Source: a virus
UHGV virus genome: UHGV-0062059
DNA length: 39,873 nucleotides
Strand: one strand, 5' to 3'
Of this stretch, positions 21,001 through 24,000 are shown piece by piece (positions within the stretch are counted from its first letter, which is position 1; every line of letters starts with the position of its first letter). Position numbers: made by a program.

Positions 21001-24000
21001 GCAATGCCACAGCGTCCTGGCTTTTGGGAGAGAAGTCTTTCAGGCCAAGCTGCTTACGGTAGGCATCCCACCAACGGGAAAGAAGCTGGTAACGTCCGGC
21101 TGCTGTTGATTTGAGTTTTGGGTTTAGCGTGACAAGTTTGCGAGGGTGATCGGAGTAATCAGTGAATAGCTCTCCCCCTACAATGACGTCATAACCATTA
21201 TTTCTGGTTTTCTGACGTCCGTTATCAGTTCCCTCTGACCACGCCAGCATATCGAGGAACGCCTTACGTTGATTATTGATTTCCACCATCTTCTACTCCG
21301 GCTTTTTTAGCAGCGAAGCGTTTGATAAGCGAACCAATCGAGTCAGTACCGATGTAGCCGATAAACACGCTCGTTATATAAGCGAGATTGCTACTTAGTC
21401 CGGCGAAGTCGAGAAGGTCACGAATGAACCAGGCGATAATGGCGCACATCGTTGCGTCGATTACTGTTTTTGTAAACGCACCGCCATTATATCTGCCGCG
21501 AAGGTACGCCATTGCAAACGCAAGGATTGCCCCGATGCCTTGTTCCTTTGCCGCGAGAATGGCGGCTAACAGGTCATGTTTTTCTGGCATCTTCATGTCT
21601 TACCCCCAATAAGGGGATTTGCTCTATTTAATTAGGAATAAGGTCGATTACTGATAGAACAAATCCAGGCTACTGTGTTTAGTAATCAGATTTGTTCGTG
21701 ACCGATATGCACGGGCAAAACGGCATGAGGTTGTTAGCGCAACCTCATGCCACCCGCTTTCACGAGGCCATGTGTAGAAGGCCGCAGCGTAACTATCACT
21801 GATGAGTTCAGGATAGCCAGTGGCTACGGCTCAGTTATGGTGCTGGTTAACGGAATTGAACCGCTACCCATTCGCTTACAAGGTGACTGCTCTACCATTG
21901 GAGCTAAACCAGCATATTTGGCGGGACAGCGTGGACTCGAACCACGATAAGAAGGTTAACAGCCTTCCGTAATGACCTTTATACGACTGACCCAAATAAA
22001 AAAATCCCGAAACCGTTGTGCAGGCTCTAACTAATACCTGCGAACTGTTTCGGGATTGCATTTTGCAGACCTCTCAGCCTGCGATGGTTGGAGTTCCAGA
22101 CGATACGTCGAAGTGACCAACTAGGCGGAATCGGTAGTAAGCGCCGCCTCTTTTCATCTCACTACCACAACGAGCGAATTAACCCATCGTTGAGTCAAAT
22201 TTACCCAACTTTATTCAATAAGTCAATATCATGCCGTTAATATGTTGCCATCCGTGGCAATCATGCTGCTAACGTGTGACCGCATTCAATATGTTGTCTG
22301 CGATTGACTCTTCTTTGTGGCATTGCACCACCAGAGCGTCATACAGCGGCTTAACAGTGCGTGACCAGGTGGGTTGAGTAAGGTTTGGGATTAGCATCGT
22401 TACAGCGCGATATGCGGCGCTTGCTGGCATTCTTGAATAGCCGACACCTTTGCATCTTCCGCATTCTTTCTCAACAACTCTCCCCCACAGCTCTGTTTTG
22501 GCAATATCAACCGCACGGCCTGTACCGTGGCAATCTCTGCATCTTGCGCCCGGCGTCGCGGCACTACGGCAATAATCCGCATAAGCGAATGTTGCGAGAA
22601 CTTGCAGTACCTTTGCCTTAGTATTTCCTTCAAGCTTTGCCACACCACGGTATTTCCCCGATACCTTGTGTGCAAATTGCATCAGATAGTTGATAGCCTT
22701 TTGTTTGTCGTTCTGGCTGAGTTCGTGCTTACCACAGAATGCAGCCATTCCGAATCCGGCTTGTGATTGCGCCATCCCCATAGCAGCCATCACATCAGTA
22801 CCGGAAAGAGAGTCAGAAGCTGTGGCCCGTGGTGAGTCGCTCATCATTGGGCTTTTTGGCGAATGAAATTTAGCTACGCTTTCGAGTCTCATCGTCTTCC
22901 CCTTTTGCCCTGTTTGACCATCAGGACGCCGTTAACTATTACGTGACGCTCACCTTTGCTGTCTCGGTTGTACTTGAGCACTGTTCCTCTTGCGCAGGAA
23001 AGCATCCTCGCCACTTCGGTCTGATTGCCTCGTGTCTGGATAAGAAGCTCTGGTATCGTTTGAATTGTGGCGTTCATACGCTCTCCAGTTCGGTGATTTT
23101 TATTCCAAGCCGTCCGCCTGGTACTTTCACACCACGAATTACGCGAATGTCATCGAATTGCTCGTCGTCTTCCGCAAATCCGGCGTGGATAAGGGAGTCG
23201 AGTAAACCTTTCAGGATGTTGTCGAGGTCGCGGCGGCGGGAGTCTGGAACGTCTGCGATGACTTTGATGCGGAGTCGTGATTTGGTGAAAATGTCTAACT
23301 TGAGTTGGCGGATGATTTGCTGAACGTCTTTTCGGTATTTCTGGCCTTTATCGCTGATGTAGTATTGGCTTCCCCGTCTTCGCCAGTAGGTGTTCACCGA
23401 CGGCGGGTAAGGAAGCACAAACTGATATTCGTTCATGGCTTAATCTTCCCCTCCTTCAGCAGTATCGCCTGCGTCCTGATCACGCCTTCGAGGTGGTAAA
23501 GTCTGGCGTCTTTGTTGTCGAGATTATGGGTGCGTCGGTCGATTTCATCGTGACACGCGCTACAAGCCCATGCGCCAATCAGGTCGTCAGGTTTCATTCC
23601 CGTTCCGCAAATTCCAGCCATCCGGTAATGTGCCAGAACTGTAGTTTCAGGATTGCCATTGCATACGCCGTAAATACGTACCTGGCATTCTCTGCCGCGT
23701 GCTTCTTTGCGTAGGTTAGCCATTAAGCAGCCTCCCCTGTTACTTTCAGCATTCCGTTATCGAGCAGCTTTCTGGTCAGCCACTGTTGACCACGCCCGGT
23801 GATTTTTGTGGTGAACGATATCTGTATTCCGTGATTTGTGTTGACCGCTGTTTCTTTCACTGTGAAATAGCCGCGATCCATATATTCCTGCATTGGCACA
23901 TTGCGCCGGGAACCTGAAGCAATAAGGATTTTGTGATCGCGCATCCACGCAAACAGTTTGTTTGGACCAATACCAACAACCTTTGCATAGTTTCCAATCA

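Follow-up and report, generated by a model that had tools for sequence, protein, structure and literature searches.

The window analysed here, the complete 39,873-nt stretch of the virus genome UHGV-0062059, carries two tRNA genes, tRNA-Asn(GUU) plus tRNA-Thr(UGU), in the slot between the late-leader terminator tR' and the holin gene S. Both loci were confirmed as real tRNA genes, and the pair is the tRNA-Asn/tRNA-Thr cassette of phage 21/Sf6-type late operons, which is already known. The original prediction, made from the sequence alone, had regarded one of the genes as apparently degenerate and their function as uncertain. Comparison with related phage copies and with published nuclease data suggests that most of the odd mismatches are conserved family traits and not decay, and that the two genes probably function as nuclease-resistant replacement tRNAs. 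For tRNA-Thr, this reading draws on experiments published for a copy with a 2-nt difference from the one in the window.

Within the window, ARAGORN called two tRNA genes and no others, each encoded on the minus strand, and the Rfam model RF00005 (gathering score for tRNA acceptance, 29 bits) accepted both with E-values of 3e-9 for tRNA-Thr and 2e-9 for tRNA-Asn. The two genes, predicted as Asn(GTT) and Thr(TGT) copies lying 5 nt apart, were thus recovered as described:

21919-21993, minus strand: tRNA-Asn(GUU), 75 nt, CCA end encoded (ARAGORN call, Rfam 55.3 bits)
21914-21918, minus strand: spacer between tRNA-Asn and tRNA-Thr, 5 nt, AAUAU in the transcribed sense (read from the sequence)
21838-21913, minus strand: tRNA-Thr(UGU), 76 nt, CCA end encoded (ARAGORN call, Rfam 54.8 bits)

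The anticodon, U33, A37, G18G19, the TTC loop and the CCA end are present in the tRNAs, as are the identity nucleotides for ThrRS and AsnRS, which are known to be the anticodon loops, A73 (Thr) or G73 (Asn) and the Thr pairs G1-C72 and C2-G71. The discriminator base is G73 in tRNA-Asn and A73 in tRNA-Thr, and the latter keeps G1-C72 and C2-G71. A core set consisting of U8, A14, G18G19, U33, purine 37, T54-T55-C56 and CCA is full in tRNA-Asn and complete in tRNA-Thr but for position 14, where C14 is found. While tRNAs nearly always have A14, which pairs with U8, C14 is typical of this tRNA-Thr family, U14 occurs in nine copies, and the functional phage 21 copy departs from A14 too. The mismatches reported initially were also found. 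In tRNA-Asn, which has the anticodon stem GAAGG/CCUUC, the T.T mismatch of the acceptor stem corresponds to U4.U69, and U13.U22 is an additional mismatch that had not been listed. The anticodon stem of tRNA-Thr (GUCAC/GCGAA) contains G27.A43 and A30.C40 and hence retains three of five pairs. Minimum-energy folding was tried as a test of function and was uninformative, because the host genes thrU and asnT likewise give no cloverleaf.

Two nucleases that cleave these tRNA species have been described. The lethal action of P2 Old is cleavage of host tRNA-Thr(UGU), which is cut behind the C in the paired CNG motifs of positions 28-30 and 40-42; Lys(UUU), Asn(GUU) and also Val(UAC) are cut at a slower rate (PMC12445682). 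Phage tRNA-Thr(UGU) genes rescue cells from P2 Old, and the phage 21 copy was tested explicitly by expression from a plasmid (PMC12445682). Resistance needs an alteration of the CNG motifs together with a shortened anticodon stem; phage 21 has C28U/G42A and a shorter stem, and site 2 (after C40) is still cut in its tRNA-Thr (PMC12445682). For another rescue tRNA, tRNAThr6, protection depended on the UGU anticodon, and ACA decoding was restored (PMC12445682). AriB of the PARIS system cuts between positions 40 and 41 of Lys(UUU) and Thr(UGU) and, with lower efficiency, of Asn(GUU); its cleavage determinants are U39, position 41 and U16 (PMC12409363). The corresponding positions of the host and window tRNAs are:

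Host thrU: positions 28-30/40-42, CUG/CAG; positions 36-41, UAAUCA; position 16, U
Window tRNA-Thr: positions 28-30/40-42, UCA/CGA; positions 36-41, UAAGCG; position 16, A
Host asnT: positions 28-30/40-42, CGG/CCG; positions 36-41, UAAUCC; position 16, U
Window tRNA-Asn: positions 28-30/40-42, AAG/CUU; positions 36-41, UAACCU; position 16, A

The window tRNA-Thr combines the features linked to rescue from P2 Old, namely a UGU anticodon alongside retained ThrRS identity elements, CNG motifs that have changed and an anticodon stem of reduced length. At the AriB determinants, the host has U39, A41 and U16 in thrU and U39, C41 and U16 in asnT, whereas the window has G39, G41 and A16 in tRNA-Thr and C39, U41 and A16 in tRNA-Asn. 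Judged by sequence comparison, the reported cleavage determinants are missing from both window tRNAs. We infer that these tRNAs would resist AriB and that the Asn copy may also be an anti-nuclease replacement.

Of 5,426 complete E. coli genomes, 369 contain the cassette, as do many Salmonella P22-like phages, and the Asn>Thr array was seen 139 times among the fetched loci, which are mostly IMG/VR contigs. In phage 21 (OL657228) it is arranged as follows:

39543-39590: terminator
39591-39665: tRNA-Asn
39671-39746: tRNA-Thr

Order, gene lengths, 5-nt spacing and the position right after tR' are shared with the window, and the tRNA-Asn is identical over 75 of 75 nt. The tRNA-Thr of phage 21, referred to as tRNAThr21 in PMC12445682, shares G27.A43 and, relative to host thrU, C28U/G42A. 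The spacers differ by one base; furthermore, Q, pR' and tR' of the window are of the lambda type and not of the phage 21 type, and phage 21 has the lysis genes S21/R21 where the window has lambda S/R. In Sf6, both tRNAs are annotated directly after tR' with the record note "similar to phage 21". The Sf6 tRNA-Asn equals that of the window (75/75), its terminator abuts tRNA-Asn as in the window and phage 21, and the 5-nt Asn/Thr spacing is found in Sf6 as well as in mEp506. Among P22-like and lambdoid phages or prophages (Sf6, BTP1, Kapi1, mEp506 and HK446), the cassette is 98.1-98.7% identical to that of the window, and A30 and U59 of the window tRNA-Thr occur in none of them. Many records annotate the pair as tRNA-Asn/tRNA-Thr, but it was left without annotation in several, such as those of HK446 and phiv205-1.

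Conservation within this family bears directly on the question of degeneracy. Among distinct variants, G27.A43 is unpaired in 21 of 21 tRNA-Thr sequences, while U4.U69 is unpaired in 22 of 23 and U13.U22 in all 23 tRNA-Asn sequences. Compensatory double changes were detected at four pairs of tRNA-Thr (3-70, 4-69, 6-67 and 49-65) and at three pairs of tRNA-Asn, including 28-42. Paired cells amounted to 94.6% (Thr) and 89.4% (Asn), compared to 20-55% when the partner columns were slid, and the covariation score was above all 500 shuffles and every slid control. These compensatory changes support a function as tRNAs, as support and not as proof, since the sequences are closely related. Diversity was approximately 0.01-0.02 within the tRNAs versus 0.25-0.38 in the mosaic flanks. 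Moreover, unrelated tRNA-Thr(UGU) genes of phages also have a mismatch at 27.43, namely in two T4-like phages, one P1-like phage and one phage-plasmid. The view of a degenerate gene is therefore mostly not sustained, as U4.U69 and G27.A43 are kept in practically all variants of the family, neighbouring pairs change in a compensatory manner and the tRNA-Asn is that of phage 21. For tRNA-Thr, the phage 21 copy is functional in vivo and its short stem is part of the resistance (PMC12445682); only A30.C40, which is specific to the window genome, is an exception and may affect function. Beside these variants, about ten IMG/VR contigs carry a chimeric tRNA-Thr with positions 1-25 of the phage type and thrU-like anticodon and T arms, which in one case are identical to those of E. 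coli thrU. This suggests recombination of the phage gene with the host gene.

The tRNA pair is embedded in a late transcription unit of the lambda type with the following elements:

22892-22269, minus strand: late antiterminator Q, lambda type, 207 aa, required for reading through tR' into the tRNA pair (open reading frame list; Q in the annotation of matching records)
~22226-22198, minus strand: late promoter pR', TTGACT-17 nt-TAAATT (promoter scan, lambda alignment, PR' annotation in HK446)
~22057-21994, minus strand: late-leader terminator tR', hairpin and U-tract (lambda alignment)
21596-21273, minus strand: holin S, lambda S107 type, 107 aa (open reading frame list; alignment with lambda and Sf6)

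Late transcription runs along the minus strand, on which Q, pR', tR' and S all lie, and from this direction and the coordinates the order of transcription is tR', tRNA-Asn, tRNA-Thr and S. The distance from the end of the tR' U-tract to G1 of tRNA-Asn is 1 nt. There is no space for a separate promoter between tR' and the tRNAs, and the promoter scan gave pR' alone. A gap of approximately 240 nt separates tRNA-Thr from S, the first protein gene past the pair and the start (at 21596) of the lambda-type lysis genes S, R and Rz. The pR'-tR' region is 98.3% identical to lambda. In the alignment, 159 nt of the window (21995-21837, comprising the 156-nt pair and 3 further nt) stand for 161 nt of lambda (44784-44944), and identity to lambda on either side of this segment is 98.3% and 95.7%. 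The location between tR' and S, a slot that other lambdoid phages use for cargo (e.g. the Klebsiella arrays described below), was therefore predicted correctly, whereas a pure insertion downstream of tR' was not found; compared to lambda, the slot is a tight like-for-like module swap. We also considered the 161-nt lambda segment as a possible decayed relic of the tRNA pair. Its global alignment with the pair was only weakly above shuffles (9/500) and its local alignment was not (186/500). Between tRNA-Thr and S (21722-21751, minus strand), we observed a perfect 12-bp hairpin with the loop CGCUAA, followed by GUUUUG. Lambda and Sf6 have a conserved counterpart and, relative to lambda, the hairpin shows one compensatory change from G-C to U-A and one C.A mismatch repaired to U-A. 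It is possibly a structured late-leader element.

The tRNA pair is transcribed when Q allows RNA polymerase to pass tR', and in the proposed mechanism host tRNA-processing enzymes would then presumably excise the tRNAs from the late transcript. The nucleases to be countered would be those borne by rival mobile elements, such as Old of P2 and PARIS AriB on P4-like satellites. As the phage copies keep anticodon and synthetase identity elements while their anticodon stems and D-loops are rewritten, we propose that these nucleases would cut them poorly and that translation of ACA-rich phage genes could continue. The first place in the late transcript may ensure that the tRNAs are on hand as late-protein synthesis starts. 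A shared logic is found in T5- and T4-like variants that neutralise PARIS AriB and P2 Old, in which the anticodon is kept and the anticodon stem or D-loop is altered at positions of nuclease recognition or cleavage; the T4-like tRNA-Thr(UGU) combines the 27.43 mismatch with CNG loss, as does tRNA-Thr of the window. T5- and T4-like phages are virulent and carry large tRNA sets including Lys(UUU), whereas the phage of the window is temperate and has two tRNAs, located in the late leader.

Several points weigh against such a protective role. The set needed to evade PARIS is incomplete, since ARAGORN detected only Asn and Thr and no tRNA-Lys in the window; as tRNA-Lys(UUU) is the main AriB target, the pair alone cannot defeat PARIS. 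The CNG logic is not universal either: the CNG motifs are still paired in Klebsiella-type tRNA-Asn, and a full CNG stem of 5 bp is retained by P1 trnT as well as by one Klebsiella lambdoid tRNA-Thr. The classic trigger of P2 Old is lambda Gam, which is not encoded in the window, where a cIII fragment is the only lambda match in the respective region. Late expression may also come after the nuclease has acted. Finally, G30A leaves three of five pairs in the anticodon stem of tRNA-Thr, lowers its Rfam score by 6.7 bits and had no match in the scans, so that this private mutation might be harmful.

A possible, though doubtful, explanation that involves no defence system is codon supplementation, in which the tRNAs would add decoders for phage-favoured codons, chiefly ACA, the host reader of which is only the single-copy, low-abundance tRNA-Thr(UGU). 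The comparison of codon usage with the host, which had been recommended along with the original prediction, revealed an excess of ACA in the window (16.2 per 1000 codons; 18.4 in its late genes) and in phage 21 (13.9) compared to 5.7 in E. coli K-12 (50 kb), and ACA makes up 29% of Thr codons in the window versus 11% in E. coli. Supplementation has also been suggested for the Asn tRNA in the phage L genome paper (PMC8022706). However, P22, which has no tRNAs, equals the window in ACA use (14.4 per 1000, 29% of Thr codons), so that codon use does not predict carriage of the pair and is weakened as a sole explanation. Asn codons are only slightly in excess (45 versus 38 per 1000 in E. coli) and are served by four host asn genes, and the rewritten anticodon stems and the conserved 27.43 mismatch would be left unexplained. 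The supplementation and replacement readings are compatible with each other, because loss of thrU would hit a phage with such high ACA usage particularly hard. A far less probable reading holds that the sequences are not used as tRNAs at all. According to this highly improbable explanation, they would be punctuation for processing of the late transcript by RNase P or RNase E, or a recombination scar at a mosaic junction. The edges of the cassette are indeed mosaic junctions with highly variable flanks, and the 5' end of tRNA-Asn abuts the terminator. Yet conservation extends to the anticodons, the nucleotides of synthetase identity, the CCA ends and the bases in tertiary contacts, and the stem changes are compensatory, and in the published experiments phage 21 tRNA-Thr protects from P2 Old, with protection by tRNAThr6 requiring the UGU anticodon (PMC12445682).

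The remaining alternative concerns only the tRNA-Thr of the window, which differs from the phage 21 copy by G30A and G59U (74 of 76 nt identical). It seems unlikely, but is conceivable, that this copy is decaying, in which case G30A would be mildly or strongly harmful and only the Asn copy and the G30 versions of the family would be fully functional. Consistent with decay, pair 30-40 is intact in all of the 21 tRNA-Thr variants but this one (A30.C40), and the A30 version had no match in three collections (IMG/VR, one genome each of 185,579 species, and JGI metagenomes); the closest full-length matches to the cassette among phage records and E. coli genomes reached 98.7%. In addition, the Rfam score drops from 61.5 bits in phage 21 to 54.8 bits, which is attributed to G30A, and minimum-energy prediction no longer gives the cloverleaf. 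As the window genome diverges by 3-5% from its nearest relatives over positions 19000-25000, two changes in 76 nt would reflect background divergence only, with no extra constraint visible. On the other hand, the Rfam score is still far above the threshold and all identity elements are intact. Host thrU does not give an in-silico cloverleaf either and carries a mismatch of its own (A52.C62), and A.C can pair in a wobble-like manner. U59, likewise private to the window, is a return to the base found at position 59 of host thrU. We presume that the G30A copy still works as a tRNA. Alternatively, it may be speculated that G30A is a second-step escape mutation, which would unpair C40 and render the tRNA more nuclease-proof while keeping ACA decoding, with the Asn partner completing a two-tRNA kit of temperate phages against Toprim anticodon-stem nucleases. 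Unpairing of C40 would be relevant because P2 Old (site 2) and PARIS AriB (between 40 and 41) both cut after C40; nevertheless, we regard this idea as a long shot. The A30.C40 tRNA-Thr may be impaired or, equally, may have gained resistance.

tRNA cargo at comparable and at different positions is known from other phages. In Stx phages, the tRNAs ileZ-argN-argO directly follow the late promoter and terminator and precede the lysis genes. Klebsiella lambdoid phages carry arrays in the same slot between pR' and the lysis genes, with other tRNA species; in phage ST16-OXA48phi5.2 (locus L007, 1501-1820), the slot after Q holds Asn, Phe(GAA), Thr and Arg(UCU) in this order. Its Asn and Thr genes are homologous to those of the window, with compensatory changes in the acceptor stems, and its Asn retains paired CNG motifs. 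In the Salmonella phage ST64T (locus L006, 1281-1349) and in phages of the phage L type, the Asn gene is kept and the second gene is an odd tRNA-like sequence, which is rejected by ARAGORN, scores 42.1 bits in Rfam and has been named Leu(UAA) in the phage L paper (PMC8022706). The Asn and Thr genes of P1/P7 (trnA and trnT) differ in location (ban operon region) and sequence. P1 trnT has a full 5-bp stem with CUG/CAG motifs and hence lacks the features of Old resistance, whereas P1 Asn has no CNG motifs; as independent support, the P1 pair is therefore mixed.

With respect to the remainder of the genome, the window appears to be one whole mosaic phage genome of ~39.9 kb that combines Sf6/P22-like virion genes with int, Q, S and R of the lambda type. 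A lambda attP-like core (TTAGTATAAAAAAGC) lies at its start (1-200) and a lambda-type integrase gene at its end (38803-39873). A lambda cIII thermoregulator element (RF01804, 88.5 bits) was detected at 32110-32168 on the plus strand. Lambda Gam, Bet and Exo are absent near this element, where, of the lambda early-left operon, there is a match only to a cIII-region fragment, and an open reading frame for a RecT-like protein (32775-33686) follows it. Accessory early genes at 31218-31901 and 33664-34152 (both plus strand) encode an Nmad5 (nucleotide-modification-associated) protein (E = 1.6e-71) and a Sipho_Gp157 protein, both without a PADLOC match. Altogether, ten accessory open reading frames were screened against Pfam and PADLOC; no defence or nuclease genes were found among them, and their Pfam matches were Nmad5, Sipho_Gp157, Ead/Ea22, DUF551 and Rha.

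As the pair has long been annotated in phage 21 and Sf6 as well as in hundreds of prophages, its presence in the window adds little by itself. The useful result is a reinterpretation: the short stem and the mismatches that look degenerate are mostly conserved and, for tRNA-Thr, are tied by published experiments to the escape from P2 Old (PMC12445682). Such tRNA genes should therefore not be discarded as pseudogenes during annotation.

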